Source: Thermoanaerobaculia bacterium (GTDB taxonomy: Bacteria > Acidobacteriota > Thermoanaerobaculia > Multivoradales > Multivoraceae). From it: DNA of 64,000 nt. Position 1 is the first letter of the stretch, and each line of letters begins with the position of its first letter. The notes below the pieces were generated by a model. The model was not told the DNA's origin and ran no database searches. It saw only the letters and a list, made by a program, of their open reading frames with translations. The DNA is taken from NCBI GenBank assembly GCA_963666565.1, contig OY762911.1, forward strand, positions 4,032,001 through 4,096,000. The letters are read 5' to 3'. Position numbers and translations under genes: made by a program. Shown here in pieces: positions 33,951 through 54,779 of the stretch.

Positions 33951-34397
33951 ATGTCCCGAACAGCCCACCGAGCGCTGCCCGCGGCCGTTTTCGCGCTGAC
34001 CCTGAGCGCGACCGGCCCGTCCGACGCCCATCACGCGTTCTCCGCCGAGTTCGACGCCAACCTGCCGATCAAGGTGGAGGGGACGATCACGATGGTCGAG
34101 TGGATCAACCCGCACGCTTGGGTCCACGTCCAGACCACGCTCGACAGCGGCGAGACCCTGACCTGGGAACTCGAGGCCGGAACGCCGAACACCCTGGTCC
34201 GCCGCGGCCTCACCCGCACCCTGCTCAAGCCCGGCACGGAAGTCGTCGTTCGCGGCTACCAGAGCAAGGACCAGATGTGTACGCCGAACTGCCGCGGCAG
34301 CGGCCGCGACATGAAGCTCCCCGACGGCCGCAGCCTGTTCATGGGCTCGTCCGGCACCGGCGCGCCGCGGGACGGCGCCGACCCGACCGAGCAGTAG
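33951..34397 (+). CDS. DUF6152 family periplasmic protein
   Basis: Signal then HHAFSAEFD, 'EWINPHAWV', 'W.LE.G.PN.L.R.G'; TATGAT -10 and AGGAGG RBS. Confidence 0.85.
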   Translation: MSRTAHRALPAAVFALTLSATGPSDAHHAFSAEFDANLPIKVEGTITMVEWINPHAWVHVQTTLDSGETLTWELEAGTPNTLVRRGLTRTLLKPGTEVVVRGYQSKDQMCTPNCRGSGRDMKLPDGRSLFMGSSGTGAPRDGADPTEQ

Positions 34398-34484
34398 CGG
34401 CACCCCCGGTGCGGCCCCTGGCCCCGGGGCGCCCTCCGGATGGCGTCCCGGCGCGATGGTCGCTACGGCGGCCGCGCCGCCCGA

Positions 34485-34604
34485 TCAGCCGTCGCCGGGT
34501 GCCTCGCTCGACTCCTCGTCGTCGTCCAGCACGCCGAAGGAGGCGACGATCTCCAGGCCGATGAACGCCACGGCCAGCAGGATGAAGAAGTCGAAGTCAC
34601 TCAT
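34485..34604 (-). CDS. Possible 39-aa single-TM small protein with acidic tail
   Basis: MSDFDFFILLAVAFIGLEIVASFGVLDDDEESSEAPGDG; GC3-biased codons. Confidence 0.45.
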   Translation of the reverse strand: MSDFDFFILLAVAFIGLEIVASFGVLDDDEESSEAPGDG

Positions 34605-34737
34605 GAGTCGCTGTCTCTGATGAAGATGATCCGCGGAGTCCGCGCCGTGGCGTTGCCTCCGTGGATCATATGCCGTCCGGCAACGGCGCGCCAACCGGGG
34701 GCGTCGACCCGACCGCACCGGAGCGAGACCGCCGAGT

Positions 34738-34794
34738 TATAGGGAAGTTACCCCGGTTTATCGAAATCGGATAAACCGGGGTAACCTTCCTATA
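34738..34794. repeat. 57-bp AT-rich near-perfect inverted repeat (MITE/IS-scar-like)
   Basis: TATAGGGAAGTTACCCCGGTTTATC-gaaatcg-GATAAACCGGGGTAACCTTCCTATA; arms match 23/25. Confidence 0.85.
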
Positions 34795-34913
34795 CATGTC
34801 GCCGACAGCCGACTGATGGCCACGGGTTGGCTGGCCGTGAGTTCGATGACGAACTCCGAACCGTCTTCCTCGACGTACCGCTTCACCAGTGCGCTCGCGT
34901 CGAGAAACAGCAT
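34758..34913 (-). pseudogene. vapC: Truncated VapC (PIN) toxin
   Basis: MLFLDASALVKRYVEEDGS is a PIN N-terminus. After ~39 codons it runs into the palindrome and stops. Confidence 0.8.
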
Positions 34914-35197
34914 CAGAACCGATCGTCCCGTTCCTCGACGATGGTGTCCGCGACCGATTCGCCACGCACCTGTATCGGTTCGACCGACCGCGCGCGGCGC
35001 GCGGTCCCCAGGGTCACGAGTCCCCTGGCCGCGAGGTCGAGGAGTTTCTCCTCCTCGTTCGACGCGGCTTTCGGCAGCGGCCTGAGCTCGGCCACGGGTC
35101 GTCCTCGCTCGGTCACCAGAATCACCGATCCCTCGCGGACCCTTCGAAGGTACGTGCCCAGCCGCGTCTTGAGTTCTCTCGCTCCCACCGTCACCAT
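34913..35197 (-). CDS. Phd/YefM family antitoxin
   Basis: MVTVGARELKTRLGTYLRRVREG..ILVTERGRPVAEL; TGATG coupling to vapC. Confidence 0.9.
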   Translation of the reverse strand: MVTVGARELKTRLGTYLRRVREGSVILVTERGRPVAELRPLPKAASNEEEKLLDLAARGLVTLGTARRARSVEPIQVRGESVADTIVEERDDRF

Positions 35198-35233
35198 GTG
35201 ACCATTGTAGGCACAAGCGTAAGGGCCGGGCAA
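35190..35233 (-). promoter_or_regulatory. Leaderless TA promoter with palindromic operator over the start codon
   Basis: TTGCCC-18 nt-TACAAT-6 nt-ATG; palindrome GTCAC-cat-GTGAC at 35190-35202. Confidence 0.65.
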
Positions 35234-35443
35234 GGACCGGCCCCGCTCAGGGAGCGCTCATGGGCCACCACCAGAACCGCCTCACATTGAAGAAGGCTCT
35301 ACCGACCGAACTCGGGTCGCTATGGACCGATCAAGCCAAGTCGCCGAACCACTCGAAAGGCCCACCTGCGGCAACACCGCCGCAATGGCGATCAGGGATC
35401 CCCGACTCCAACCGGCGGCGGCCACGGTCGCCGTGAGCGCCGC

Positions 35444-36523
35444 CTACGGATCCTGCTGATCCTGCTCTTCCTTCGCCGCTTCCAGCGCCTCCTGTGCCGC
35501 GTCGACGCGGTTCTGGCCGCCGTACCAGCTTGCCAGCCAGTCCTTGCCGTCTTCGGCGGTGCCCTGCTGCTCGCGGTGGCGGGCGCCGCGGAGCATGAGA
35601 GTCATGGCGCGGTTGCCTTCGTGGCAGGCGTACTCGAGGACCGGGTCGTCGGTGCGGCGCATCTCGATGGCGCTCGTCCAGGGCGCTTCGAAGGACTCGG
35701 GGTCGTCGACGGTGTACTCGTAGAGGAGGGCGTCGGGGCCGGTGCGGGTGAAGCGCTCGGTCAGGACCAGGTTCGGACCGGTGCCGCGGTAGGCGGTGTG
35801 CTCGGTGTAGTTCTTCGTCGTCACGACGAAGGTGTCGCCGTCCCAGACACCTGAGGAGTCGCCCTTCCAGAAACGCATGCTCTCGTCGACGTGCTCGCGG
35901 CCGTCGGTGGGGATGACGCGGTGGTCGTTGATCATCTCGGTCATGATCGCGACGTAGCCCCGCGACTGGAAGATCTCCATCATGTTGTTGTAGGCGCCGG
36001 GGGTCACCGGCGGGCCGGCGTTGAAGCCGACGATGCAGCGCTCGTAGGAGTTGCGCTCTTCCGGGCCGGCCGGGGGCTGGCCCCAGAGGGCGTAGCGCTC
36101 GTTCGCGCGGCGGATGGCGCCGTCCGTCATCTTCGGCAGGCGGCCGTTCGGCGGATCGACGATCAGGGAAGTGCGCATCGTGCCGGAGACCTTGTCGCCG
36201 AGGTCGAGCCAGAAGGAGTTGTAGCCGACGTCGACGTCGCCCTGGCTGGGATCGACGTCCTGTACGCCGGACGCCGCCCGCGCTGCGCGCTGCTGACGCC
36301 GCTGCTCTTCCAGTTCGGCAGCCTCTTCGGCGGTGAGCGTCGCCTTGTCGCCGAAGGCGGCAGGCCGCTCGAGCGGCGTGATCGAGCGGTAGTCCCAGGT
36401 GCCCTGCAGGTCCGGAACGCCCCAGGACGTGACGAGCTTCTCATCCTCGGCGTACGCGGCCCCGGTGACAACCAGGACAGCCGCGACGAAAGTGACGGTG
36501 CTTGCGGACAGTCGGTGCTTCAT
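35444..36523 (-). CDS. Uncharacterised periplasmic protein, 'PDL.G.W...EYACHEGN' family (paralogue 1)
   Basis: Signal; GVPDLQGTW, TSLIVDPPNGR, ERC, GDSSGVWDGDT, ERFTR, EYACHEGN; AAGGAG RBS. Confidence 0.8.
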   Translation of the reverse strand: MKHRLSASTVTFVAAVLVVTGAAYAEDEKLVTSWGVPDLQGTWDYRSITPLERPAAFGDKATLTAEEAAELEEQRRQQRAARAASGVQDVDPSQGDVDVGYNSFWLDLGDKVSGTMRTSLIVDPPNGRLPKMTDGAIRRANERYALWGQPPAGPEERNSYERCIVGFNAGPPVTPGAYNNMMEIFQSRGYVAIMTEMINDHRVIPTDGREHVDESMRFWKGDSSGVWDGDTFVVTTKNYTEHTAYRGTGPNLVLTERFTRTGPDALLYEYTVDDPESFEAPWTSAIEMRRTDDPVLEYACHEGNRAMTLMLRGARHREQQGTAEDGKDWLASWYGGQNRVDAAQEALEAAKEEQDQQDP

Positions 36524-36537
36524 GACTTCGACTCCTT

Positions 36538-37353
36538 TCACTCTGGCGTCGCCCCGCGGCGCAGATGGCCGTAGGCCGCGTCCTCTCCCCCGAGCGGAAT
36601 GCACTTGAACTCGAGCAGGCGCGCGTTCTCTTCAAGGCGCCTGTAGAGCGGCATGCTGATCGTCCACGGCTCGGTGAACACGTTCGGATCGGTGATCGTT
36701 GCCTCGTAGTGCATCGAGTCCGGTCCGGTGCGCGTGTAGCGTTCGACGACCTGGAGCTCCTCGCTGTGGAAGTTGCCGGAGGCGTCGAACCAGGTGTCGG
36801 GGACCTGGTCCGTGACCTCGACCACCAGGGTGTCGCCCTCCCAGTGCCCGAGCGAGTAGCCCATCCAGGACGGCAATACCGCCCGCGTGCCGGGCCGGTC
36901 GAGGCGGACCGGGCGGCTGTTGCCGCCCCACTCATAGGCGAAGAAGACCGCCTTCGGCGTCTGCACGATCTGGAACGGCAGCGGCATGTAGGTGGCGCGC
37001 GGAATGCCGGGGATGAAGCACTTCGCCGCCGGGTCCAGGTTCAGCCAGTCGGCCCGGTTCGCGTTACGCTGCTCGAGCGCCCAGTCCTGGTAGGGAATCT
37101 CGCCGCCCTCGACCACGCTCAGCCCGGCCGGGATCGCGCCCAGGGCGCCGTACGCCGGGACCGGCGTGCGCCGCGCGTGGTGCGCTTCGAGGTCCCAGTG
37201 GGCGCTGTTCATCGCCTGCCAGATGCCGTTCAGATCGGGATTGCCGTCGGGCGTCCTGGGCGCCTCCCAGGCGCCGTCCTGTGCCTGCACCACCGCAGAC
37301 ACGACCAGAAGCAGCATCGCCGACAGCGACACGGCCAGACTGTGCTTGTGCAT
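36538..37353 (-). CDS. Same superfamily, shorter type (paralogue 2)
   Basis: PRTPDGNPDLNGIW, KCFIPGIPR, GYSLGHWEGDTLVVE, ERYTR, LLEFKC. Confidence 0.8.
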   Translation of the reverse strand: MHKHSLAVSLSAMLLLVVSAVVQAQDGAWEAPRTPDGNPDLNGIWQAMNSAHWDLEAHHARRTPVPAYGALGAIPAGLSVVEGGEIPYQDWALEQRNANRADWLNLDPAAKCFIPGIPRATYMPLPFQIVQTPKAVFFAYEWGGNSRPVRLDRPGTRAVLPSWMGYSLGHWEGDTLVVEVTDQVPDTWFDASGNFHSEELQVVERYTRTGPDSMHYEATITDPNVFTEPWTISMPLYRRLEENARLLEFKCIPLGGEDAAYGHLRRGATPE

Positions 37354-37423
37354 GGATGGGGACTATAGCGAAGGTCGCGGCGACGGGCAGCGGCTGCTAC
37401 CGCCGCTCCGCGGCCCGGCGGAT

Positions 37424-37449
37424 GCGGGTCAGAAGACCCGCGCACCCAG
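37424..37449 (+). repeat. REP-like palindrome
   Basis: GCGGGTCAGAAGACCCGCGCACCCAG. Confidence 0.85.
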
Positions 37450-37469
37450 CACGCGGCGACGGCGACTCC

Positions 37470-39626
37470 CTACGGCAGGCGGAAGACGAACAGGCCGTTG
37501 CCGGTCCGCGGATAGCGGATCTCCGGGCTGACCCGGGCCGGGACGAAGCGCGGACTGCCGCCGCCGAGCCCGGTCGACACGGCCACGTACTGGACGCCGT
37601 CGACTTCGTAGCTGACGGGGAAGCCCTGCACCGAGGTCGGCAGGCGGGTGCCCCACAACTCCTCGCCCGTCGCCGTGTCCCACGCGCGGAATCGCCGGTC
37701 GATGTCGCCGGCGAAGACGACGCCGCCGGCCGTGGTCAGGGCCGCGGTGAGAAAGGCAGGCCGCTGCTCGATGCTCCAGACCTCCTCCATCGTGTCCACG
37801 TCGTAGGCCGCGAGCTTGCCGAGGCGTCCCTCCGTACCGGGCATCTCGAACCACTTCCGGTCCGCCCGCTCGCCTCCCGCCCCCTCTTCGAAGCGCGGCT
37901 CGCGGCCGGAGATGTCGAGGCAGCTCTGGCTCAGCGGCACGACCAGCAACCCGTGCGCGGGACTGTAGGAGGAGGCCTGCCAGTTGTGGCCCCCGGCCGT
38001 GCTGGGACAGACCGAAACCCACTCCCCGACTTCGGCCGACGCGATGTCCTCGCGGTAGCGGACCTCACCGGTCTCGCGGTCGATGTGGTCGAAGACGTTC
38101 TGGAACACCATTTCCTCGAGCGCGACGAAGGAGCCGTCCGTACGGTCGAGCTTCCACAGGATGCCGTGCTTGCCGGAGGTGAGCAGCAGCCGCCGGCCGC
38201 CGCGGTCGATCAGGACCTGCTCGAACGCCTCGTCGAGGTCGAGGGCTTCGCCGGGCACGTGCTGGCGGTAGAAGACGATTTCCCCGTCGCCAGGGCGCAT
38301 CGCCAGGGTCGAGTTCGTGTACAGCACCTCGTGGTCGATCGTCAGCCCACGGCTCGCGGGTACCCACGGCTTGGCCTGCGCCACCGGCCAGTAGACGAGT
38401 TGCAAGTCAGGGTCGTAGCTGCCTGGAATCCAGGAGTCGCCGCCGCCCCGCAGCATGAGCGGCAGCTCGCCCCAGGTGTCGCCGCCGGGCTCGCCGGGCC
38501 GGGCGACGGTGTAGGTGCGCCACCGCTCCTCGCCCGTCTCGGCGTCGTGAGCGGTGATGAAGCAACTGTCCTCGTGGTAGCGGATGCAGCCGTTGATGCC
38601 GTTGATCACCAAACCCTCGACCACGATCGGGCCGCTGGTGTTCGAGTAGCGCTTCGCCGGATCGGCAATCTGCGTCTCCCAGACAGGCCGCCCGTTCCGG
38701 GCGTCGAGCGCGAGCATGGCCGCGTCCTTCGTGGCGACGAAGACCTTGTCGCCCCGGATCGCGAGGTTGCGGAGCTGGTTGAACCCGCGCGCCAGGTCGC
38801 CCTCCAGCCCGCGGTCGTACTCCCAGATCAGCGTGCCCGTGTCGGCCTCCAGCGCCTGGATGATGTTCCCCGGGTTGGCCAGGTACATGACTCCGCGGTA
38901 GACCAGCGGTGTCGGCTGATTCACGCCATCCGCCATCGCCCAGGACCAGGCCATCCGCAGGTCGCCGACGTTGTCCGGGTCGATCTGATCCAGCGGGCTG
39001 TGGCCCTGACCGTCGTAGGTCCGCCGGAACATCAGCCAGTCGCCGGGGTCCGGGTCGAGCAGCATCCCGGTCGTCACCGGCTCGAAGTCCTCGATCTCCC
39101 GTTCCCCGGGCGGCGTGACGTGCTCCTCCTCCGCTTCGGCAAGAGCGCTGACGTCGCGTTCCGCGGCCACGGCTGCGTCCCTCGGGGAGGCGGCTGCACC
39201 CCCCAACCCCAGACTGCCCAGTGAGACGGCGAGACCGGAGCTGTCCGGCATCAGCGCTTCATCGCCGGCGGATGCGCCGTTTCGTAGCAGCACGAAGGCA
39301 GCGAGGTCGAAGGTCTGCTGCGGCGTCAGAGAGTTCCGGTTCTCCGGCGGCATCGTGACCCGGATCGTGTCCGCGAGATCGACGACGGCGCCGGCGCCCC
39401 AGGCGTCGAGAAAGTCCACGCCGACCAAGGGAGGCGCCTCGTTCGCGCCGGCCAGGCTGGAGAGGTGGCACTCGACGCAGATCTCCTCGTAGAGCGCCCG
39501 TCCACGCTCCGCCTGCTCGGCGGTGAAGACTCGCAACGGCTCGACCGGCGGTTGCGCGCCGGCGACCGCAACGGCCGCCAGGAGCACCCCGGCAGTTCCA
39601 AGCAAAACGGGACGTCGGGACGCCAC
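37470..39626 (-). CDS. Quinohemoprotein: N-terminal cytochrome c plus PQQ-binding beta-propeller dehydrogenase
   Basis: CVECH heme motif; '[20 protein letters not shown]...NV..L..AW', W-motif propeller blades, '[12 protein letters not shown]'. GTG start is approximate. Confidence 0.88.
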
Positions 39627-39640
39627 TGTTTCGCCCGCGA

Positions 39641-39666
39641 GCGGGTCGGAAGACCCGCGCACCCAG
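39641..39666 (+). repeat. REP-like palindrome
   Basis: GCGGGTCGGAAGACCCGCGCACCCAG between divergent genes. Confidence 0.85.
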
Positions 39667-39714
39667 GATTCGGCTCGGCAGCCCCTTCCGGGCAACCCAC
39701 GTACACTCCGCGCC

Positions 39715-40722
39715 ATGGCCCGCATACTAGTTGTCGGCGGCACCGGCCCCACCGGCCCGCCGATCGTCAACAACTTCCTCCACGCCGGTTTCGACGTCTC
39801 CATCTTCCACTCCGGCCGCCACCCGGCCGAGTTCGACGGTCCCGTCGAGCGCATCCTGGGCAACGCCCGCGACGCGGACGACATCCGCGCCAAGCTCGCG
39901 TCGCGCGAGTGGGACATCGCGGTGTGCATGTACGGCCGCCTGCGAACGCTGGCCGACGAACTCGCGGGAAAGACGAAGCGCCTCGTCGGCATCACCGGCC
40001 AGCCGGTCTACAGGGGGTCGCAGCCGCCGACGCCCGAGGGCCGCATCCCGCTGCCGGTGCCGGAGTTTGCGCCCCGCCAGTACGACGCGAAGAACTACAC
40101 GGGCAAGGTGGCGGCCGGCGAAGACCAGCTCTTCGAGCAGCACGGCCGCGGCGACTTCGAGGTCGTCATCCTGCGCTATCCCGGCGTCTACGGCCCGCGT
40201 ACGCCGATGAACCACGAGTGGGCGGTGGTCAGGCGCATCCTCGACCGCCGGCCGTTCATGATCCTCCCCCACGACGGCGTGACCTACTTCCAGCGCGGCT
40301 ACGCGGAGAACCTGGCGCGCCTCGTCTTCCTCGCCGCGACCCGGCCCGAGGCGGCGGGCGAGGCGTTCAACGCCGGCGACGAACGCGTCATCAGTTGCCG
40401 CGCCGTGGCCGAGGTCATCATCGACGAACTGGGCTCCGACATGGAACTGATCGGCGTGCCGGCGCCCTTCTGCCGAGGCGTCTTCCCGCTTGCCGAGAAG
40501 TCCAACCAACTGCTCGACATGTCGAAGGCCCGCAACCTGCTCGGCTACCGCGACGTGGTCGATCCGGAGACGGCGACCCGCGCCACGGCGCGCCATCTGC
40601 GCGACGACCCGCCGGCCGAGAAGGATCTCTACGCCGCGGGAACCGGCCGGTTCGACTACGAGCGGGAGGACCGGATCGTCGAACGCTGGCGGCGCGCGCA
40701 GGCGCTGATGAGCGAAGACTGA
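39715..40722 (+). CDS. NAD-dependent epimerase/dehydratase (extended SDR)
   Basis: [13 protein letters not shown] (YTGK), [16 protein letters not shown]. Confidence 0.85.
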
Positions 40723-40779: not shown

Positions 40780-41772
40780 ATGATCGGACGGACCACGCTC
40801 GCTCTCACCGTGGCGGCCGCGCTGCTCGCGGCGCCCGCACTGGCAGCCGACGACTGGGAGACGCCGCGCACTCCCTGGGGCCACCCGGACCTGCAGGGCC
40901 TGTGGACGAACACGACCCTGACCCCCTTCGAGCGGCCGGTCGAGATGGGCGACAAGGCGTTCCTGACCGAGGAGGAGGTCGCTCAGGCCGAGGCGGCCCG
41001 CCAGGCGATGATCCAGAACCGGGCGGACCAGCCCGCGCAGAAGGCGGAGGCCGGCCAGAACGTCGGCGCCTACAACCTGCACTGGCTGGAACTCGGCACG
41101 AAGATCGTCGGCAGCAGGCGGACCTCCCTGGTCGTCGATCCGCCGAGCGGCCGCGTGCCGGTGCGGCCCGAGGCGCAGCAGGTGCGGGCCGACAACCTGG
41201 TCAAGATGTTCGACTCGTACGAACACATGAGCGTCTGGGACCGCTGCATCACCCGCGGCGTCCCCGGGCACCTCTTCCCGGCCGGCTACAACAACAACTA
41301 CCGGATCGCCCAGACGCCCGAGTACGTCGTCATCTACTCCGAGATGATCAACGACGTCCGCTTCATCCCGGTCGACGGCCGCGAGCGGATCCCCGAGGAC
41401 CTCCACCTCTGGAACGGCGACTCCCGCGGCCACTGGGACGGCGACACGCTCGTCGTCGAGACGAGGAACTTCTCCGACAAGGGCTGGATCGCCACCAGCG
41501 GCTCCCAGGGCCGGATCAAGGGGATCCCGGTCAGCACCGAGCTCGTCACGGTGGAGCGCTTCGCGCGCGTCGACGAGCACACCGTGGACTGGACGGTCAC
41601 GATCGAGGATCCGGTCAACTACACGGACGCCTGGACGGTGAACATCCCGCTCTACTTCGACCCGGACAACGAGATGTTCGAGTACGCCTGCCACGAAGGC
41701 AACTGGGCGGTCTACAACACGTTGAGCGGCGCCCGCCACCTGGAGAAGACGGGCGAGGACAGCAGCCCGTAG
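40780..41772 (+). CDS. 'PDL.G.W...EYACHEGN' family periplasmic protein (paralogue 3)
   Basis: PRTPWGHPDLQGLW, TSLVVDPPSGR, DRCITRGVP, GDSRGHWDGDTLVVET, EYACHEGN; GGAGGAG RBS. Confidence 0.82.
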   Translation: MIGRTTLALTVAAALLAAPALAADDWETPRTPWGHPDLQGLWTNTTLTPFERPVEMGDKAFLTEEEVAQAEAARQAMIQNRADQPAQKAEAGQNVGAYNLHWLELGTKIVGSRRTSLVVDPPSGRVPVRPEAQQVRADNLVKMFDSYEHMSVWDRCITRGVPGHLFPAGYNNNYRIAQTPEYVVIYSEMINDVRFIPVDGRERIPEDLHLWNGDSRGHWDGDTLVVETRNFSDKGWIATSGSQGRIKGIPVSTELVTVERFARVDEHTVDWTVTIEDPVNYTDAWTVNIPLYFDPDNEMFEYACHEGNWAVYNTLSGARHLEKTGEDSSP

Positions 41773-41863: not shown

Positions 41864-42937
41864 ATGAGCTTCCCGATGAGTTTCGACCCTGGCCGCTTCC
41901 CCGTTCCCGTCCGCGACGACATGGCCGCGGCGCTCCGCGAATCCTGGGCCGACGTCGGCCGGCCCGGCGCCTGGTGGACCGGTCCCGAGCGAGTCGCCAT
42001 CGCGGGACTCGCCCGCGCCGAGCGCCTCCAGCGGAACCAGCCGCCGTGGACCCGCGACCGTTCGCGGGCGCCGGCGGCGCCCCTGCCCGAAAAGGCCGTC
42101 GAAGCGGCCCGGAAGATCGGCGCCGACCCGATGCACCTTGACCGCGAGTGGGCCGACGCCGTCATCGCCGAAATCGGCGACGCGCCCTACGTCGAACTCG
42201 CCTCGGTCGTCGTGACGACGGTCGCCGCCGACGCCTTCTGCGAGGCGATGGGGATCGACCCCGAGCCCCTGCCGGCGCCCGAAGCCGGCGAGCCGACCCG
42301 CGAGCGGCCCGACAACCTGAGCGACATCGGGGCCTGGGTGCCGGTCCAGGTCATCGACTGGAAGCGCGCAAACGTGGCGCGCGCGCTCAGCCTGGCGCCA
42401 GAGGGCGTCCGCACGTTCTTCCGCATGGTCGCCGCCATGTACTCGGGCACGGCCACCGACTTCGAGAAGATGGTGTGGGACCACCGGCCGCTCCCGCGGC
42501 CCCAGGTCGAGCTGATCGCGGCCAGGGTCTCGGCCCTCAACGAGTGCTTCTACTGAACCACCGCCCACACCATGCTGCTCCGGGCGAGCAGCAACGCAGC
42601 CGGAACGGAAGTGGACCTGAGCGCGACGGTGGAGGACACTGCTGACAGCGGGGTCGAGAACGGCGCGGCTCTGACGGCCTTCGCGGAAGCGGTCGTCCGG
42701 GCAACGGACGATCTGGATGCGGTCCGCGCGCGGGCGCTCGAGACGCTGGGGCCGGAGAAGTTCGTCGAGGCCGCCGCCACCGTCGGCATCTTCAACGGCC
42801 TGGTCCGCGTCGCCGACTCCACCGGCATCCCCAGCGACACGATGATGCTCGAAGGCACCGCCGACGTCCGCGGCGACCTCGGCATCAACCGCTGGGCCGG
42901 CGCCAAGGCCTCCGGCGTCGCCGAGGCGCGCGCGTAG
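41864..42937 (+). CDS. AhpD/CMD-like alkylhydroperoxidase-related selenoprotein (UGA 42554-42556 read as Sec), ~357 aa
   Basis: 'RPQVELIAARVSALNECFY-TGA-TTAH' gives CxxU at the AhpD CxxC position. The frame continues to TAG 42937 with protein-like sequence, and a hairpin follows the UGA. Confidence 0.8.
42573..42593 (+). other. Candidate bacterial SECIS hairpin
   Basis: TGCTGCTC-CGGGC-GAGCAGCA, a perfect 8-bp stem with a G-containing loop, starting 16 nt after the UGA. Confidence 0.65.
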
Positions 42938-42970: not shown

Positions 42971-43378
42971 CTACCGGGCGGCTTCGGCGAGCCAGTTCTC
43001 CACGCGCAGACCGTCCACGCGGCCAAACTCCCTCTCGTTGTTCGTCACCAGCGTGGCGTGAGCGCCTCGGGCGTGGGCCGCAATCAGAAGGTCGTTCGCT
43101 CCTATCGTCTGGCCGCGCCGCACAAGCTCCTGGCGGATCTTGCCGTAGCGAACGCCAGCCTCGGCATCGAACGGCAGGATGTCGAGATCGAGACAGAAGG
43201 CCTGAAGCTCCCGCTCATTCTCTTCAACCCGAGCCGAGTGCGCGACGCCGAAGCACAGTTCCGCGTGCGTGATGGCGGAGATGCACACGCTGGAGGCGTT
43301 CTCCTCGAACTTCCGCCTCAGACCCTGATCGCGCTCGTTGATCAGGTAGATGCACATGTCCGTGTCCAGCATGAACAT
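42971..43378 (-). CDS. vapC: VapC PIN-domain toxin
   Basis: MLDTDMCIY, S.IT.AEL..G, IGANDLLIAAHA, LVTNNEREF.RV.GL.VENW. Confidence 0.95.
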   Translation of the reverse strand: MFMLDTDMCIYLINERDQGLRRKFEENASSVCISAITHAELCFGVAHSARVEENERELQAFCLDLDILPFDAEAGVRYGKIRQELVRRGQTIGANDLLIAAHARGAHATLVTNNEREFGRVDGLRVENWLAEAAR

Positions 43379-43620
43379 CAGCGGAGATCGTCCCGCTCCT
43401 CAAGAGGCGGCTGGTTGCGCGCGGGAAGGCTCCCTCGGGACCTCGCATCGAAGTACGCGCCCCAGTTCTTCCCGCGCGGAAGCAACGTAAGCCGATCCCC
43501 TTCCTGGATCACCTCCACCTCGGAGGTCGCGAACCGGCACGCCGCCGGCAGCCGTACCGCCTGACTGCGTCCGCTCCAGAACACCTTGGCGACCCCTCTG
43601 TAGTCCGGCTCCTTGTTCAT
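43378..43620 (-). CDS. vapB: VapB antitoxin (AbrB/SpoVT type)
   Basis: AKVFWSGRSQAVRLP...RF...EV.....GD.L.L.P; GAGGAG RBS; TGATG coupling. Confidence 0.93.
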   Translation of the reverse strand: MNKEPDYRGVAKVFWSGRSQAVRLPAACRFATSEVEVIQEGDRLTLLPRGKNWGAYFDARSRGSLPARNQPPLEERDDLR

Positions 43621-43661
43621 TGGCACTCCTCACGTCGATCTCAGAGTTTGCCTCCGGGAGA

Positions 43662-46192: not shown

Positions 46193-47746
46193 TCACCCAG
46201 CCGCGAACTCGGGAACCGGCAGATCCTTGAGATGCCGGTGGCACATCTCGCAGCTCGACACGCCCTTCGACGCCGCCGCGGGATCGAGCTCCTCGTCCAC
46301 CCATCGCAGGAAGGTCCGGTAGTTCTCGAACACGGTCCCGGAGTCCGTGCCGACGGCGCCGAGGTCGAAGTGGGGCGAGTCGATCTCCGCCGCGAACGGG
46401 CAGGCGTGGAACCGCCCCTTCGTCGTCAGCACCGGGAAGCAGCGGACGCAGCGGTCGCCCATGCCGTGGTACTCCGACTCGCGGTCGCGGTCGAAGTCCT
46501 GCTCCGCTCCCCCGCCGGCGTGGAACAGCACCTTGTAGCCCTGGAAGACGCGGTTCGGGTTCGCGCGCGCCCAGTCCTCCAGGCGCTCGCGCGCGTAGCG
46601 AGGCATCGGCTCGGCGTCCCTGCCGTGGTAGATCGAGTAGTTCAGCACCGCCTCGCTCTTCGGGTCCGACTCCAGGATCGCGATCAGCTTCTCCGCCTGG
46701 ATGCCGTTCGAGAACACGGTGATGAGCCCCGTGAAGCCCCGCTCGCGGAGGTAGCGCATCGCGTCGACGATTTCCGCCGCGTGAAGGGTCGGCTCGCCGC
46801 CGTAAAACTTCAGGTTGCCGTCGGCGGCCAGGGTCTCCAGCGCCTGGTCCAGCACCTCGGGCGCGTAGGCCCGGTACCAGCCCTCCGGCGATCCGTCGAT
46901 CGTGCACCAGGAGCAGGCCCGGTTGCAGAAGTTGCCCTCGTAGAGATGGAGTTCGCGGAGCTCGCCGTCGGCCGCCGAGAAGTGCTCCACGGGTTCGTGG
47001 AAGGTGATCGGGCCGATGTTCGGGTCCCGGTGCGTGTCGTTGAGACCCCAGTCGTACGTGTTGTAGACGATCTCGTAGCCGGCGACCCGCTCCGGGTCGA
47101 GGCCCGCGTGCTCGGCCACGAAACGGAGTACGCCGCGGCGGTACTCCTCGCGCGTTCCCGCTCCGCCGGCGCCGCCGGCGAAGTCCTCCGCGTACATGCG
47201 GAAGATGCGCGAGACGAAGATCCTGCGCGCCTCGTGGTCCACCCGGCAGTTCCAGCGGTTCGCCAGGAACGCCTCGGTCGCCCGGCGCAGCGTGTCGCGC
47301 AGGCCGTCGCCCCGATAGGCCGAAGGGCGCACCGCCGGGCAACCGTTCGCTCCGCAGTTGATCGCGAAGTGGATGCGCGGTTCGGCGTACTCCGAGCGCA
47401 GGATCCGGTGCTCTATGTCGTCCAGGCTGACCGTCGAACCCCCGGCCACGTGCCGCCGCCGCTGGAAGAACCGGCCGTCGCGCGTCTTCCACACCGAACG
47501 GATCGGGTACTCCTCGGCGATCGCGTGCAGGGTGAACGCGTTGTAGGCGTTGATCCAGTAGGCGAGCCCGTCCTCCTCGCTCGCGAACAGGTCCGGCCGG
47601 CTGTCCGGCGACGCTTCGCCGAGTTCCCTTACGACGTCGTCAAGCAGCGACCGGCGCGCCGCGAGGCGCTCGTAGTCGACCTTGCCGTCCTCGGCGACGA
47701 CGGCAGACAGGAGGCGATCCCATGCGTCGTAGGAGAAGGTATCCAT
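46193..47746 (-). CDS. DUF547 domain fused to a radical SAM domain
   Basis: DUF547: VDY, AYWINAYNA, SLDDIEH.ILR, PRIHFAINC....CP, YDWGLN. Radical SAM: CNRACSWC, GGEPTL, C-terminal CVRC..ACPF..CEMC. Confidence 0.85.
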   Translation of the reverse strand: MDTFSYDAWDRLLSAVVAEDGKVDYERLAARRSLLDDVVRELGEASPDSRPDLFASEEDGLAYWINAYNAFTLHAIAEEYPIRSVWKTRDGRFFQRRRHVAGGSTVSLDDIEHRILRSEYAEPRIHFAINCGANGCPAVRPSAYRGDGLRDTLRRATEAFLANRWNCRVDHEARRIFVSRIFRMYAEDFAGGAGGAGTREEYRRGVLRFVAEHAGLDPERVAGYEIVYNTYDWGLNDTHRDPNIGPITFHEPVEHFSAADGELRELHLYEGNFCNRACSWCTIDGSPEGWYRAYAPEVLDQALETLAADGNLKFYGGEPTLHAAEIVDAMRYLRERGFTGLITVFSNGIQAEKLIAILESDPKSEAVLNYSIYHGRDAEPMPRYARERLEDWARANPNRVFQGYKVLFHAGGGAEQDFDRDRESEYHGMGDRCVRCFPVLTTKGRFHACPFAAEIDSPHFDLGAVGTDSGTVFENYRTFLRWVDEELDPAAASKGVSSCEMCHRHLKDLPVPEFAAG

Positions 47747-47760
47747 CGCGTGAATCCTAG

Positions 47761-49508
47761 CCCGCATGTTTCACCGATGCGGCGTTCGCGTCGGGTTTTG
47801 AGCTGAGGAAGGCGTTTTGGCGTTGGCCGGAGGCTCTCGCTGGGCTTGGGCGTCGCAGGCGGGTTCGAGTCGGCGTACGGAAGCGTCGCAGGCGGCTGCG
47901 GCGGCGCGGCTGGGCGATCTTCGGACGCACTTCGGCCGGGTGTCGATGCAAGGCGTGTTGTTGTGGGGTCCGATTCCGAGTCGGGTTTCAGGCCGGCGGG
48001 TGGTAGAGGGGTTTTCGTTGGAGGTTTGCCAAGGCCTGGGCGAAGTCGTTCTGCCAGGGGAAGGCGTCGGACAGGTGGATCCAGATGCGGCGGTGGGTGA
48101 TGCGCACTCTGGCGGCGACCTTGAGCAGGTGGAGGCGCAGAGTGCCGCACTGGAGGCGGGCCTTGCCGGTATCCGCGAGAGCGAGCCGTCGCACGGCGGC
48201 GAGCAGGACGTAGGCGAAGGAGGAGAAGTAGAGGCGCAGTTGATTGGCGGCCATGGTGGCGCTCGAGGTGCGGTCGGCGAAGAGGTCGAGTTGCTGCTCC
48301 TTGATGCGGTTTTCCATGTCTCCGCGGGCGCAGTAGAGCTGCTCGTAGAGCGGCTGCTTGCCGGCGCGGCTCCTCCGCAGACTGGACACGACGAAGCGGG
48401 GATTCGCGCCCTTCGCGAGCCACTCCGCCTTGCCCACCACTCGCCTCTTGCGAGACCACGAAGTGTCGGTCCGGTAGCGGAACTCACGGAACCGGCGCGA
48501 CGCCTTGCCGGTCGCATGGAAGCGCCGCCGCGACTTCTGAAGCGGTCGCCCAATCCGCCTCACAAGACGGCGATTCCTTGCCACGCCGAACACGAAGCCG
48601 ATCCCCTGCCTCTCGCACCAGGCCATGATCCGCTCCCGGCAGAAGCCCGAGTCGCCGCGCAGGACGATTCGCACCTCCGGCCAAGCCTCCCGAATCCGGG
48701 CGACGATCGGCGTCAACTCCCGGATCGTGCCCGCGCTGCCATCCTGATTCGACCGCCGCAGCCGCGCCAGCAGCAGGTGCTCGCCACAGAACGCGTACAG
48801 AGGCATGTAGCAGTACGTACCGTAGTAGCCGTGGAAGAACCGGCCCTCCTGAGCCCCGTGCAAAGGATCGTCGGTCGCATCGAGGTCCAGCACGATCTCC
48901 GCGGGCGCCTCCTCGTGAGCCTCCAGAAACAGGTCCACCAACAGACGATCCAACGCCTTCGTGTCTGCCGGGATCCGCTTGTAGCGGTCGCCCGCCGCCT
49001 TGCCCGGACGAGACAACTCCAGCCGATTCAACGCCGATGCGCTCGCCAGCGGACGACCCTTGTCCCGCGTCCGACGACGATCCGCGCCCGTGATGTCCGA
49101 CTTGCCCACCAGCAACGCCATGAACGCGTCCCGGCGAAGCTGGTTGTGGTCATTCAGGTCCTCGTAGCCCAGAGCCAGACCGTAGACCCGCTGAGCCACC
49201 AGATCACGCACCGTGTGCTCGACCGCCGAGGGATTCCGGTAGTCCCGAAAACACGACGCCATCCGCTCCAGAAGACCGAGGCGAGCCTCCGTCTCCCGAA
49301 GCAGCACGCCGCCGCCCTCAGACGTCAACTGGCCGCCGTCGAAACGAACCGTCACCCGACGGCGACCGTGGCGACCAAACTCAAGCTGCGACGGAGTACA
49401 CTCTGTGATCACGGGCCTCGCTCCTGCGGATCCTCCAAATGTCTGATACCACTTGGATTATCTGCCGGAAGAGGCCCGATCTCAAATCACCCCCGTGAGA
49501 TATGCGGG
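47761..49508 (-). mobile_element. IS1380-family insertion sequence (1748 bp)
   Basis: Terminal IRs CCCGCATGTTTCAC / GTGAGATATGCGGG (12/14 match) flanked by a CTAG target duplication (47757-60, 49509-12). Confidence 0.92.
47988..49412 (-). CDS. IS1380 family DDE transposase
   Basis: FDGG.LTSEGG, GYEDLNDH, LDLDATDDPLHGAQEGRFFHGYY, RGDSGF, Y..RGDMENRIKE. Confidence 0.95.
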   Translation of the reverse strand: MITECTPSQLEFGRHGRRRVTVRFDGGQLTSEGGGVLLRETEARLGLLERMASCFRDYRNPSAVEHTVRDLVAQRVYGLALGYEDLNDHNQLRRDAFMALLVGKSDITGADRRRTRDKGRPLASASALNRLELSRPGKAAGDRYKRIPADTKALDRLLVDLFLEAHEEAPAEIVLDLDATDDPLHGAQEGRFFHGYYGTYCYMPLYAFCGEHLLLARLRRSNQDGSAGTIRELTPIVARIREAWPEVRIVLRGDSGFCRERIMAWCERQGIGFVFGVARNRRLVRRIGRPLQKSRRRFHATGKASRRFREFRYRTDTSWSRKRRVVGKAEWLAKGANPRFVVSSLRRSRAGKQPLYEQLYCARGDMENRIKEQQLDLFADRTSSATMAANQLRLYFSSFAYVLLAAVRRLALADTGKARLQCGTLRLHLLKVAARVRITHRRIWIHLSDAFPWQNDFAQALANLQRKPLYHPPA

Positions 49509-49705
49509 CTAGCCCGCGCGTCTCGCCGAAGTCCGTGGCGAGCGCGCGGAGCGCGGCCCTCGGACCGATTCGGCGACGCAGGCGTAGCCGACACTTGCGT
49601 CGAGACGACGCGATGGAGAAGGTCCCGCTGAAGCGAGTGGATCCGCGGGCTCGCCCTACCTGTCCGGGCCAGGTCGGCGGACCGCCGCGCCGGCCGGCGC
49701 CTGCC

Positions 49706-50797: not shown

Positions 50798-50841
50798 TTC
50801 GTCCATCCCCTTCCGGTTGCGGCCCCCTGTTCCTCCCCGCG

Positions 50842-53645
50842 TCACGGGCCGCAGGGGAAGGCGGCGGTGTCGCCGCCGGGGCGCGCCGTCTCGCCGGCAA
50901 TTTCGTTGGTGTAGGTCCACTCGTTCCCGTCCGGCGCCACGACCCGGACGAGGAGCTTCAGGTCGGTCGTCGGCGCCAGGAACACCCACCGCCGACCGTT
51001 CACGGCGCAGCCGTCCAGGACCTTGATCAGCACCTCCACGTTGCCCGGGTCGAAGAACCACAGCAGGCCGGCCTCGTTCGACCACGTTCGTCCGCGCGCG
51101 TATCCCGTCTCTCCGTCCCGGGTCTGGAAGCACGCGAACACCCGGTATCCGCTGACTTCAACCGCCTCCATGGGCGGCTGGCACGTTTCGAGGCCCTCTT
51201 CCGGCGGCGGCGGCTCGACTCCGTTCACCTCGTGCCCGGCCTGATCGGACAGCCCCGGATGGCGGAGCGTCGCGGCCTCGCCGTCGGCCGCGACGATCGA
51301 GGCGTCGTTCAGTCTCAGAGAGTTCCGGATCACGCCGACGCCGTCGTCGTCCCTGTCCCCGCCCTGCACGAGGTACCGGAACACGAGCGTCCGGTCGCCG
51401 CTCTTCCCGCGGAACGTCGCCGCGCGCCCAGTGCCGCCCACGTTCAGGGCCAGCAGCGGCGTGCCGCCGTCGACGTCCACGGAGACGGCCTCGCTCATCA
51501 CGACGGTGACTTCAATCCACTCGCCCCATCCGTACGCGACGCCGTCGGCCGGGAACGAGGTCACGAAGAGCGAGTCCACGCCGGGAGGGGGTGGAGGCGG
51601 GGGTGGGGGTGGCTCCGGGTCAGGTTCCGGCGGAGGAGGGGTTCCGCCTCCTCCGCCTCCTCCGCCTCCTCCGCCTCCTCCGCCGCCGTCCCCCCCCCGC
51701 AGGCCGCAACGGTGTCCGTATCCTCTATCCCCGCGTGCCACGCCGTCAGGGCGGCGGGAAGGCAGACCGTGTTCGTTCCCCCGGCGTGGAACTTCTCCAG
51801 ATTCGTCAGCGCGCTCAACTTGCCCGGGAGTTCGCCGCTCAACTGGTTGCCGGACAGGTCGAGATGGACGAGCAACGTCCGGTCCCCCAGCCAGCCGGGT
51901 ACGGCGCCCGTCAGACTGTTGTCGTTCAGGCCGAGGTACTTGATGCTCTCGAGGTTCTTCAGCGCCTCGGGGATCGTCCCGGTCAACTCGTTGTCGCCGA
52001 GGTACAAGTACCAGGGGGTCGTGGCCGACCCCAACTCGGTCGGAATCCCGCCCGTCAGGCTGTTGTCTTCCAGATTCAGGTAGAAGAGATTGCTCAGATC
52101 GCCCAGTTCGGCGGGGATGGCGCCGCTCAACTGGTTCTCGCTGAGATTCACGCTCCTGAGGGGGAGGTCCCCGAACCAGTCGGGAATCTCGCCCGTCAGC
52201 GCGTTGTCCTGGAGGTTGAGGTAGCCGAGCTCCGTGAGATCCTCCAGCCAGGTCGGCATCGCGCCGGTCAGGCCGCTGTTCTCCATGAACAGCGTCGTGA
52301 GCTCCGCGAAGTTGCCCAGGAACGAAGGCGCGGGATCGGTGAAACTGTTGCCCCCGATGTGCAGCCGCGTGAGAGTCGTCTTGAGGTCGTCCAGCTCCGT
52401 CGGGATGGCGCCGGTCAGGCTGTTGCCGTCGATCCGGAGCGTGCGGAGAGCGGAGAGGCTGCCCAACTCCGACGGAATCGAACCGCTGAACTGGTTGTCG
52501 CCCAGATCCAGGGTGTTCAGTGTCGTGAGGTCTCCCAGCCACGTCGGAATCGAGCCCGTCAACTCGTTCTCGTTGAGATACAGGTCGTAGATCTTCGTGA
52601 GGTTCTTCAGGTTGTCCGGCAGCGCCCCGCTCAACTTGTTGTCGTAGAGATACAGGTACTGGAGGCTCTCCATGTCGCCCAGCTCGGCCGGTATGGCGCC
52701 GGTCAGTGCGTTCTCGCGCAGATACAACTGCGTCACTTTCGTGAGGGCGCCCAGTTCGGTCGGAACCGAACCGCTCAGCAGGTTGCCGCCCAGGTTGAGA
52801 TACGTGAGCTTCGTCAGGCTTCCCAGTTCCGCCGGGATGGAACCGCTCAACCTGTTTCCGGCCGCCCCGTACAGGTGCCCCTCCAGGTTGAGGTGGGTGA
52901 GCTCGGTGAGGTCGCCCAGTTCCGTCGGGATCGAACCGGTGAACTGATTGCGGCCGAGTTCGAGCCGCGTGAGACTCGTCAGATCGCCCAGCCAGGTCGG
53001 GATCTGGCCGGTCAGCCCATTGCCGCCGAGCTTCAGCGTTTCAAGGTTGGTGAGGTTCTTCAACTCCTCCGGCGGCGCGCCGCTCAACTCGTTGAACTGG
53101 AGGTCAAGGTTGCGGAGGTTCGTACTGCCCAGTTCCTTCGGGATCGCGCCCGTCAGGTCGTTCTGCTGAAGCCACAGGTTCTGGAGATTCGTCACGGAGC
53201 CCAACTGGGTCGGGATGGCGCCGGTCAGCTTGTTGCCGTAGAGCTCCAGGCGCGTCAGCCCCGTGAGGCTTCCCACCTCCGTCGGGATGGCGCCGGTCAG
53301 CTTGTTCCCGCCGAGTTTCAGGCTGGCAAGGCTCGTCAGGTCGCCCAGTTCCGTCGGAATCGTGCCGCTCAGGTTGTTCCAGGAGAGGTCCAGCTCGAGG
53401 ACCCGCCCGTTGCCGTCGACCATCACGCCGTGCCACGTGCCGATCGCCGCGTTGTCGTCCTTCCAGTTCGTGCTCGTCGTCCAGTTGGCGCCGTCGGTAC
53501 CGTCGTAGAGCGCCACCAGCGCGGCCTTGTCGTCGTTCGACTGGGCCGGCGCCGGAGCAAGAGCGCCGCCCAGCGCCGCGCCCGCGATCAGGCACGCCGC
53601 AGCTCGCGCGAGGCGCATCACGCCCCGATTCTCGGGTGTCGACAT
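50842..53645 (-). CDS. Secreted plant-RLK-type LRR protein (~22 x 24-aa repeats), frameshifted at a G9 tract before its C-terminal domains
   Basis: LRR-NT 'ALVALYDGTDGANW..W..W.GV'; repeats L..L.L..N.L.G.IP.ELG.L; C9 at 51690-51698. The Gly/Pro linker, Ig-like and 'WFFDPGNVEVLIKVLDGC' domains lie in a second frame ending at 50842. Confidence 0.85.
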
Positions 53646-53696
53646 GGGATCTTCCGGCTCGCGACGGTCCCGGCGAACCGCCGTCGCGGCCGGAGT

Positions 53697-54779
53697 CTAC
53701 TCGTTCCCGGCGCCCGTGCTTCCCGCCTCCGCCTTCCGCTCCAGGTACTCCCGCTCGAGCAGCCGGGCGCCGCGCAGGATGTTGCCCATCGCGTAGTTGC
53801 CTTCGTGACAGGCGTACTCGTAGTTCAACTCCTCGGTGCGGGGCCAGAGGAACTCGCCGCCGTAGGGCGCCGTGTAGTCCGGGTCGTTCACCGTGAACTC
53901 GTAGAGCAGGTCGCCGGCGCCGCTCTGGCGAGTGAAGCGCTCGGTCACCTTCAGGCCCTCGCGCGGCACGCCCGGCCGCTCGAGGAAGTTGGTCGTCTCG
54001 ACCACGAGCGTGTCGCCATCCCACCAGCCGATCGAGTCGCCGCCCAGGGAGCGCACCTCGGGCGGCGCGTGCTCCGCGTTGAGCCGCACCACCTTCGCCC
54101 AGTGCATCCACTCGACCAGGATGACGACGTGGTCCTCGGTCTGGGCGATCGTCTTCAGGTTGTTGTAGAGGATCGGCCGGGCCGGGGTCGCCGCCGCGCC
54201 GAGGTACAGGCAGCGGTCGAGCACCGAGAGCGTCTCCGGTCCGTCGTAAGGATCGTCGCCGGTCTCGATCCACCAGGCCGAGCCGGTGTTCTCGTAGGCG
54301 TAGGGATGGAGGTCGGCGCGGCGCGCCTTGCCGGCCTCGGAGAGCGAGGGCATGCGGCCGTTCGGCGGGTCGGTGAGGATGGAGGTGCGGAACTTGCCGT
54401 CGATCGCGTGGCGCCCGCTGCCGCGATCGGTCCAGAACGAGTTGTAGCCGCCGACCGCGCCCGCGGCGCCGGGAGAACCGTCGCCGCCGGACGGCGGCGC
54501 CGACCGCTCCGGGTCGCTGGCCGCGTTGGCCCTGGCCATCGCCGCCCGGGTCCGCTCCATGATCTCCTCCGCTTCCTCGACGGTGAGGAAGAGCTTGTCG
54601 CCGAACTCCGACGGCCGTTCGAACGGAATCGAACTTGCCAGGTTGTAGCGGCCGGTGAGATCCGGCTTGCCGCTGGCGGTGCGGGGAATGTCGTCGCCGG
54701 CGGCCGCGGCCGGGGCGGCCAAGAGGGCCAGAGCGGCGATCGCGACTACGATGGCGGGTGCGGTTCGTTCGATGCGCAT
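53697..54779 (-). CDS. 'PDL.G...EYACHEGN' family periplasmic protein (paralogue 4)
   Basis: PRTASGKPDLTGRY, TSILTDPPNGR, DRC, GDSIGWWDGDTLVVET, EYACHEGN; GAGGA RBS. Confidence 0.82.
   Translation of the reverse strand: MRIERTAPAIVVAIAALALLAAPAAAAGDDIPRTASGKPDLTGRYNLASSIPFERPSEFGDKLFLTVEEAEEIMERTRAAMARANAASDPERSAPPSGGDGSPGAAGAVGGYNSFWTDRGSGRHAIDGKFRTSILTDPPNGRMPSLSEAGKARRADLHPYAYENTGSAWWIETGDDPYDGPETLSVLDRCLYLGAAATPARPILYNNLKTIAQTEDHVVILVEWMHWAKVVRLNAEHAPPEVRSLGGDSIGWWDGDTLVVETTNFLERPGVPREGLKVTERFTRQSGAGDLLYEFTVNDPDYTAPYGGEFLWPRTEELNYEYACHEGNYAMGNILRGARLLEREYLERKAEAGSTGAGNE

Follow-up and report, generated by a model that had tools for sequence, protein, structure and literature searches.

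The stretch of DNA analysed here, which we call the window, comprises 64,000 nucleotides from a Thermoanaerobaculia bacterium (contig OY762911.1, positions 4,032,001 to 4,096,000 of the forward strand). It encodes four exported paralogues that share two invariant cysteine residues and, beside the operon that carries two of them, a small exported protein of the DUF6152 family (Table 1). The subject of this report is the relationship between these two kinds of protein, as seen in their sequences, their genomic linkage and a predicted complex between them. The G+C content of the window is about 70%, and third-position G+C was therefore used to pick out the real genes, which were taken from frames in which it is high.

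Three of the paralogues are long forms (A, B and C) and the fourth is a short form. The short paralogue lies directly downstream of a gene for a quinohemoprotein dehydrogenase, with cytochrome c and pyrroloquinoline quinone (PQQ) domains, on the same strand; long paralogue A follows 14 nt further on as the last gene of this PQQ operon and is convergent with the DUF6152 gene. An earlier reading of the letters alone (hereafter the sequence-only reading) had placed two paralogues immediately behind the dehydrogenase, and the coordinates bear it out. Long paralogue B is flanked by an epimerase-like gene upstream and a gene for an AhpD-related selenoprotein downstream, and both B and C are found 6–19 kb from the DUF6152 gene.

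Table 1. Features of the window that are discussed in the text, in order of position.
Feature	Coordinates	Strand	Details
Two very large CarboxypepD_reg-like repeat proteins	549-3467, 6433-10527	+	5 and 8 matched stretches
TonB-dependent receptor (TBDR), 1103 residues	30569-33880	-	Divergent from DUF6152; Pfam Plug, 9.5e-18
DUF6152 small exported protein	33951-34397	+	Pfam PF19649, 102 bits against a cut-off of 27
Long paralogue A, EYACHEGN type	35444-36523	-	ATG at 36523, AAAGGAG upstream
Short paralogue, EFKC type, 271 residues	36538-37353	-	Lacks the helical insert and the HEGN motif
Quinohemoprotein dehydrogenase	37470-39626	-	N-terminal cytochrome c and PQQ propeller (Pfam); first gene of the operon
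NAD-dependent epimerase/dehydratase-like gene	39715-40722	+	Pfam Epimerase, 1.6e-09; ATG at 39715; directly upstream of paralogue B
Long paralogue B, EYACHEGN type	40780-41772	+	Copy used for modelling
AhpD-related selenoprotein	41864-42937	+	In-frame TGA at 42554-42556; downstream of paralogue B
PIN and MazE-type toxin-antitoxin pair	42971-43626	-	Between the paralogue clusters
DUF547 and radical SAM protein	46193-47767	-	NCBIfam radical-SAM matches weak
DDE transposase	47988-49412	-	DDE_Tnp_1_4, 508 bits; between the paralogue clusters
Leucine-rich-repeat protein, 694 residues	51561-53645	-	LRR_8, 9e-59; 51 bp downstream of paralogue C
Long paralogue C, EYACHEGN type	53697-54779	-	ATG at 54779
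Second TBDR	57230-59656	+	Plug and barrel; adjoins a CopC/CopD pair (59835-61248, -)

Each of the four paralogues begins with a hydrophobic, signal-like segment, and in their alignment identity to the first sequence is 31–43%. Invariant in all four are an N-terminal P-D-L-x-G, one central cysteine, the stretch G-x-S-x-G-x-W-x-G-D-T-x-V-V, an E-R pair and a C-terminal E-x-x-C, the last of which reads EYACHEGN in the three long forms and EFKC in the short one. A hidden Markov model (HMM) built from the four, as the sequence-only reading had proposed, was run over all 527 six-frame open reading frames (ORFs) of the window. It recovered exactly these four, with E values from 1e-102 to 6e-161, and no fifth copy; the similarity among the paralogues is therefore homology and not chance. 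Alignment and HMM thus agree that the four exported paralogues with the motifs first listed for them are real, including the three-to-one split of the C-terminal motif.

The family extends far beyond the window. Among sequence clusters at 50% identity, 26,567 have a representative that a profile of the four paralogues matches at E ≤ 0.001; tightening the threshold to E ≤ 1e-10 leaves 13,691, and to E ≤ 1e-30 leaves 2,346. Members are present in Acidobacteriota, Gammaproteobacteria and Alphaproteobacteria and often occur in several copies per locus, with up to five in tandem. The invariant polar or charged residues of the family are two Cys, one Gln, three Glu and one Asp, together with a His in the long forms. 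Against Pfam, none of the four paralogues matched a family at E ≤ 0.01, the lipocalin and fatty-acid-binding protein (FABP) families included, and against NCBIfam the only match was sub-threshold: a model for a His-rich protein scored 17 bits against a cut-off of 44, which we treated as chance. A profile search of the PDB gave no chain below E = 1.6. Every named relative is labelled 'hypothetical protein', as are all of the nearest ESM Atlas clusters.

DUF6152, by contrast with the paralogues, is a catalogued family, listed in Pfam as PF19649 under a name that declares its function unknown. The match of the window protein spans profile positions 3–92 of 98, and an AGGAGG motif stands 7 nt upstream of its ATG. 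The family is abundant, with 7,964 of 8,000 scored candidates matched, and NCBI labels the relatives 'DUF6152 family protein'. No other Pfam family matches the ORF at E ≤ 0.01, metal-chaperone families and CusF included, and a profile search found no PDB sequence match below E = 0.8. Kinship with MamS/MamX, the nearest named ESM Atlas clusters (0.81), was considered and rejected as falling below the level of evidence. In an alignment of 40 DUF6152 sequences nine positions are invariant, among them H27, H28, N53, P54, H55 and W72. All 40 have a hydrophobic core upstream of the His-His pair and an A or G at position -1, and on this ground His27-His28 is predicted, by the usual cleavage rule, to be the mature N-terminus of the protein. 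The small exported DUF6152 protein with an HH motif, divergent from a TBDR, that the sequence-only reading described is therefore what the window holds. That reading also knew of no function for either family, in agreement with searches of Pfam, NCBIfam, PDB and the literature. A full-text literature search found no publication on DUF6152, PF19649, DUF6644 or PF20349. In the literature searched, no member of either family has been characterised, none has a solved relative and none has a paper of its own; their pairing is likewise undescribed.

We analysed the genomic surroundings of the family in loci drawn from species genomes, namely the best 80 of 626 confirmed long-form matches (628 pattern matches). 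Three of these, L001–L003, are orthologues of the window (93–95% identical) and were set aside, leaving 77 loci. A DUF6152 gene is present in 15 of the 80, that is, in the three window orthologues and in 12 of the 77 others. In each of these 12 the immediate same-strand neighbour of DUF6152 is a family gene. The same adjacency was assessed on gene maps, which dropped two of the 12 DUF6152 genes: it held in 10 of 10 cases against a random-placement mean of 3.2, and none of 5000 permutations reached 10. Short-form orthologues, recognised by scores above 250 bits where everything else fell below 135 bits, occur in nine non-orthologous loci, eight of which contain DUF6152. Close relatives of paralogue C (>330 bits) were found only in L015 and L072, both of them DUF6152 loci.

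The unit that recurs across these loci combines DUF6152 with a short form and at least one long form. In L004 a PQQ dehydrogenase, a DUF6152–short-form fusion, a second DUF6152 and a long form stand in one co-directional row. On two Novosphingobium humi plasmids the stop codon of a short-type family gene overlaps the start of an annotated DUF6152 gene, and the megaplasmid of Novosphingobium sp. PP1Y carries an adjacent same-strand pair together with a second DUF6152, two DUF6644 genes and two TBDRs. The genes are thus co-encoded, and sometimes fused, across three bacterial lineages. In the window itself, the gap between DUF6152 and long paralogue A is about 1.05 kb, compared with 1.16 kb in L003 and about 250 bp in L001 and L002. 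The gap (34440–35440) contains an antitoxin-like ORF and a truncated PIN-like ORF (34758–35216, minus strand), with an imperfect inverted repeat of about 24 nt near 34741–34796. An insertion is suggested: this toxin-antitoxin remnant is missing from L001 and L002, where the gap is short.

Proteins that join the two families provide a further form of linkage. A 375-residue ESM Atlas cluster, 100% DUF6152 and scoring 0.76 to a paralogue, was used solely as a lead towards such fusions. We found 28 longer proteins containing DUF6152, of which 14–15 also match the family HMM. The clean cases, in which DUF6152 is followed by a short form with no internal signal peptide, are P0298 (12 member sequences) and L004:7950-9080. 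Nine double-domain proteins with the family part first were rejected as fusions, since they keep the spacer before the HH, which in most is clearly signal-like, and four of the five with DUF6152 first were rejected for out-of-frame reading through the end of DUF6152. These 13 read as merged calls of adjacent genes, and as such they still attest adjacency. Many of the apparent fusions among P0272–P0295 in the public protein set are merged calls of this kind, and domain-architecture counts from such sets would overstate fusions. Kinship between DUF6152 and the paralogue family was also considered and rejected, the weak cross-matches having come from the family part of the L004/L075 fusion ORFs. 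Apparent joined forms of family representatives include P0257, with a full PQQ dehydrogenase, P0266, with an extra Lipocalin_5 domain, and others with an SGL lactonase or a DUF3089 hydrolase.

Structure predictions were made for both partners. The AlphaFold2 model of long paralogue B, built from a 40-row alignment, has a mean predicted local distance difference test score (pLDDT) of 77.9 and a predicted TM-score of 0.78, and shows an N-terminal helical and coil region followed by an eight-strand β region at residues 173–293. Its best Foldseek matches are all calycin barrels (CRBP, FABP and SAHS), over roughly 125–135 columns, with E values of 2e-3 to 1e-2 (the best 2.2e-3) and target-normalised TM-scores of 0.41–0.52. 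The C-terminal half of the paralogue accordingly reads, in the model and at the level of fold only, as a calycin-like barrel. The AlphaFold2 model of DUF6152 (pLDDT 84.7) presents strands at 34–50, 57–63 and 69–75, a helix at 79–84 and strands at 97–105 and 114–122, which is the order of an oligonucleotide/oligosaccharide-binding (OB) fold. The best Foldseek matches are the OB-fold N-terminal region of LysRS, SSB/Rim1 (target-normalised TM-score 0.62–0.73) and PriB, at E values of 7e-3 or worse. DUF6152 therefore models as an OB fold, a five-stranded barrel with a helix between strands 3 and 4.

The two proteins were co-folded as three chains comprising the short form (residues 25–271), long paralogue A (27–335) and DUF6152 (27–148), the last being the partner that was scored. 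The ipSAE for DUF6152 was 0.69, 0.76 and 0.69 in separate runs, giving a score of 0.69 against 0.01 for the best of three controls. The mark applied to this score is reached by 116 of 157 solved complexes and by 2 of 215 mismatched pairs, a calibration that is only roughly valid here, with our own alignments and three chains. The runs share at least 53% of contacts, and the pLDDT of the partner is at least 73. Almost all confident contacts of DUF6152 are with the long form. When the long chain was swapped for an unrelated protein, the DUF6152 score was 0.01 despite the presence of the short form, and in the best run DUF6152 touched only residues 159–160 of the short form. A contact between DUF6152 and the short form thus finds no support in the models, which by the calibration of the tool is not evidence against one.

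On the long form, the predicted interface takes in residues 104–108, 158, 162, C164, Y179-N180, E197, 294, 297–301 (including E-Y-A-C), 303–307 (with E-G-N), 310–318 and 329–331. On DUF6152 it comprises residues 31–34, 51–55 (W-I-N-P-H), 57, 75–84, 86, 88, 105–109, 115 and 129–131. Conserved positions are concentrated at the contact surface of both chains: in the long form they make up 14 of the 33 positions at the interface and 50 of the 276 outside it (Fisher p = 0.002), in DUF6152 17 of 31 and 25 of 91 (Fisher p = 0.006). In the model, the best-conserved surfaces of the two proteins face each other. N53-P54-H55 of DUF6152, within W-I-N-P-H, is placed against the C-H-E-G-N of the long form, within E-Y-A-C-H-E-G-N, and on the long form this surface also takes in an invariant Glu, Y-N-N and the cysteine at the centre of the chain. 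It is rich in His, Cys and Glu, with H55 (and H27-H28 next to it in the chain) on one side and C164, C301, H302, E303, E197 and E298 on the other. The sequence-only reading had proposed to look for an interface that brings the HH motif of DUF6152 near the CHE motif of the paralogues. The paralogue half of this expectation stands, with the NPH of DUF6152 in place of the HH; His27-His28 itself falls outside the confident interface. The co-fold supports binding of DUF6152 to the long form, and does not show it.

The neighbouring genes offer some indication of the company in which the family works. The dehydrogenase at the head of the operon matches Pfam PQQ (4.9e-61) and Cytochrome_CBB3 (2.9e-07), scores 370 bits with TIGR03075, below the cut-off of 480 of that model and so with no subfamily assigned, and probably starts at a GTG at 39626 or 39662, in an ORF open to 39995. 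Its closest solved chain is the alcohol dehydrogenase 4cvb (2.5e-108 over the whole propeller), followed by sorbose dehydrogenase. Where 4cvb reads W-D-S-E, the window enzyme reads L-D-L-D, so that a second Asp stands at +2 from the presumed catalytic one, a feature associated with lanthanide dependence in PQQ enzymes. In 29 of the 77 loci a PQQ dehydrogenase is encoded within 10 kb, and in 15 it is an immediate neighbour. Permutation within loci gave a mean of 11.8 for this adjacency, and 631 of 5000 permutations reached 15, so immediate adjacency, as one form of the enrichment beside PQQ genes that the sequence-only reading had proposed to look for, is not above random placement within the loci, and we regard a link of the family to the dehydrogenase as suggestive.

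The proposed association with TBDRs fared similarly. The frame of the TBDR beside DUF6152 has a third-position G+C of 0.93, an uncertain start codon (the frame is open to 33919) and weak NCBIfam TBDR matches over the plug region. Genes with a Plug domain occur in four of the 77 loci (L011, L031, L040 and L061), three of which are DUF6152 loci, and Pfam identified three more genes for Acidobacteria-type outer-membrane barrels near family genes. The association is weak, and four loci are too few to claim an enrichment. Between the TBDR and DUF6152 genes we saw no AT-rich, operator-like palindrome of the Fur/Zur-box kind.

We also scanned 85 genes (29 + 56) that share the strand of a family or DUF6152 gene and lie no more than 250 bp from it. 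Recurrent among them are esterases, alpha/beta-hydrolases, a lactonase, NHL and GSDH propellers, amidohydrolases or amidases, cyclase-type hydrolases and cytochromes c; many other kinds occur once each. Small DUF6644 membrane proteins, often encoded as a tandem pair, adjoin family or DUF6152 genes at L015:8856-9350, L029:10940-12206, L069:13239-13724, L081:6020-6995 and L082:14003-15003, a set that spans loci from Acidobacteriota metagenome-assembled genomes and the two Novosphingobium species. The system may have in them a component in the membrane, although the window contains none. In L072 the gene immediately after DUF6152, on its strand, encodes a PepSY_TM membrane protein (2878-4023, minus strand; 1.2e-54).

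Elsewhere in the window, the selenoprotein gene next to paralogue B was recognised from two ORFs that abut in one frame. With TGA read as selenocysteine, the 357-residue product scores 336.7 bits with NF041238 (CFYUT type), whose cut-off is 175. The TGA is followed, some 18 nt downstream, by a hairpin whose folding energy is not unusual (z = -0.95). We treat this gene as a neighbour of paralogue B, at most a candidate for membership of the system. The window contains no tRNA gene and no Rfam match, riboswitches included.

Taken together, we consider it probable, on balance, that DUF6152 and the two-Cys paralogues belong as partner subunits to one conserved module that is exported to the periplasm, and we hold with somewhat greater confidence that they form a physical complex. 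The sequence-only reading had cast them as small and large subunits of one system, and this idea has gained from the adjacency in 12 of 12 loci, the permutation result of 0 in 5000, the two clean fusions and the co-fold. The core of the module would be a short-form paralogue with DUF6152, usually accompanied by one or more long forms, and would be represented in the window by the short paralogue, long paralogue A and the DUF6152 gene. Its large subunits would be calycin-like β-barrels with an N-terminal extension and two invariant cysteines, and its small subunit an OB-fold DUF6152 with a processed His-His N-terminus. The joint surface of DUF6152 and the long form could be the working site. 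Because this surface is rich in His, Cys and Glu, a metal ion held through such residues would be its most likely content, and we put forward a metal site there tentatively, as a suggestion drawn from residue make-up. In the company of periplasmic hydrolases and dehydrogenases (PQQ, cytochrome c), the module might act on small imported organic compounds or transfer electrons, and the expansion of the paralogues might reflect differing substrates. A catalytic or redox role for the module itself, beyond that of a carrier, seems to us doubtful.

Several observations weigh against a two-subunit module with a shared site. No DUF6152 gene lies within 10 kb in 65 of the 77 loci, which means that several paralogues share a single DUF6152 or that most long forms function without it. 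The loci found with the long form as bait are mostly from Acidobacteriota, many of them from one order, and are not independent samples. In the genomes the closest link of DUF6152 is with the short form, but in the co-fold it sits on the long form. Models built from alignments tend to draw conserved surfaces together, and for this reason the co-fold score and the conservation of the interface are not independent of each other. His27-His28 itself is not among the residues placed with low error. Neither the paralogue B model nor the DUF6152 model has a Foldseek match at E ≤ 0.001, the adjacency to PQQ genes is of the order given by random placement, and the two invariant cysteines may simply form a structural disulfide.

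The main rival to the two-subunit module is a role in metal handling, in which DUF6152 would be a periplasmic metallochaperone, in the manner of CusF-type OB-fold proteins or histidine-brace carriers such as CopC, and the paralogues metal acceptors or stores in the manner of ZinT, together relaying copper, zinc or, for the PQQ enzyme, a lanthanide imported by a TBDR. A chaperone would agree with the invariant N-terminal His-His, the N-P-H and the OB fold of DUF6152, and among the 28 longer DUF6152 proteins five carry a fused Metal_resist domain (PF13801, Spy/CpxP/ZraP-like); yet Pfam assigns DUF6152 to no metal-chaperone family at E ≤ 0.01, and CusF, CopC and ZinT are analogies, absent among the Foldseek matches listed. 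Import through a TBDR would fit the receptor divergent from DUF6152 in the window and the two receptors of the PP1Y locus, as well as Plug genes in three of the 12 DUF6152 loci against one of the 65 others, but these counts are very small, and the window has neither a riboswitch nor a visible Fur/Zur-type palindrome in the TBDR–DUF6152 promoter region. The PepSY_TM gene behind DUF6152 in L072 and the lanthanide-type Asp of the PQQ enzyme point the same way, while up to five tandem paralogues amid varied hydrolases and dehydrogenases fit a diversity of substrates better than a role in handling a single metal. On these grounds we think a metal relay unlikely.

A second rival would make the paralogues pure carriers, that is, non-catalytic lipocalin- or FABP-like barrels that bind hydrophobic or sugar-derived substrates or products and shuttle them between dehydrogenases or hydrolases and their surroundings, with DUF6152 as a lid or adaptor. 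The calycin-like C-terminal half, with FABP, CRBP and SAHS as its best PDB matches, invites such a role, although those matches are weak, and the way the invariant polar and charged residues gather on a single surface suggests a reactive or metal site sooner than a hydrophobic pocket. Periplasmic catabolic enzymes as neighbours, and the apparent joined forms with Lipocalin_5, lactonase, DUF3089 hydrolase and PQQ dehydrogenase, would suit a protein that delivers ligands to enzymes. We judge this reading quite unlikely. Chance proximity of DUF6152 and the paralogues in this one genome, which the convergent, separately transcribed DUF6152 gene about 1 kb from the operon and the distance of paralogues B and C might suggest, is very improbable, being contradicted by the 12 of 12 adjacency, the clean fusions, the Novosphingobium pair and a co-fold score above its controls, and by a 1-kb gap filled with a toxin-antitoxin remnant that the orthologues with a gap of about 250 bp lack.

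The two-subunit module can also be carried further than we have done, to a new periplasmic metallo-oxidoreductase with an active site shared between two subunits: His-His and NPH would form a copper brace, closed by Cys-His-Glu, the PQQ dehydrogenase would supply electrons and the tandem paralogues would set the substrate range. We regard this as a long shot, and to our knowledge no histidine-brace copper site occurs on an OB fold. Were it true, a family with more than 26,000 representative clusters would be among the larger enzyme families missing from the catalogues. Should the shared His/Cys/Glu site bind a metal at all, it would be a new architecture in periplasmic metallobiochemistry. Whatever the chemistry, the module looks like a widespread periplasmic complex, and it could account for some of the periplasmic genes that lack an assignment in soil and marine heterotrophs. 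Two 'hypothetical' labels become a two- or three-subunit system with a specific predicted interface, and cultured, tractable hosts exist in Novosphingobium.

The system matches no known kind although its folds are common; its novelty lies in the partnership and the predicted interface, and not in a demonstrated function. In fungi, CDH and PDH, flavin or PQQ dehydrogenases with a cytochrome domain, feed a copper enzyme, the lytic polysaccharide monooxygenase (LPMO). The window resembles such pairs in having a sugar/polyol-type PQQ dehydrogenase with cytochrome c co-transcribed with proteins that carry a putative His-rich metal site, a likeness of gene layout only; the PQQ adjacency does not exceed random placement within the loci. 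In a histidine brace, as defined in PMC10952591, copper is bound by the amino group and a ring nitrogen of an N-terminal His and by a ring nitrogen of a further His. DUF6152 would be comparable to such proteins in that a His is first after the predicted cleavage and an invariant H55 lies elsewhere in the chain. The folds of the brace proteins LPMO, CopC and YcnI are Ig-like or cupredoxin, whereas DUF6152 is predicted to have an OB fold and has two adjacent His at its N-terminus.

CusF and SilF are small exported OB-fold metallochaperones with five strands, and CusF binds its metal through His, Met, Met and Trp. DUF6152 would share with them a small exported five-stranded barrel that hands something to a larger periplasmic partner, but it lacks the His/Met/Met/Trp set, and neither CusF nor SilF is among the 49 Foldseek matches listed. 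For the paralogues, the closest likeness is to the calycin barrels (FABP, retinol-binding proteins, SAHS and lipocalins), which the C-terminal ~130 residues of the long form weakly resemble in the model. A G-x-W motif at the first barrel strand is typical of calycins. Set against these barrels, the paralogues have as their own an N-terminal extension of about 150 residues with PDLxGxW, two invariant cysteines, a C-terminal CHEGN motif followed by a helix, a signal peptide and what appears to be a dedicated small partner.

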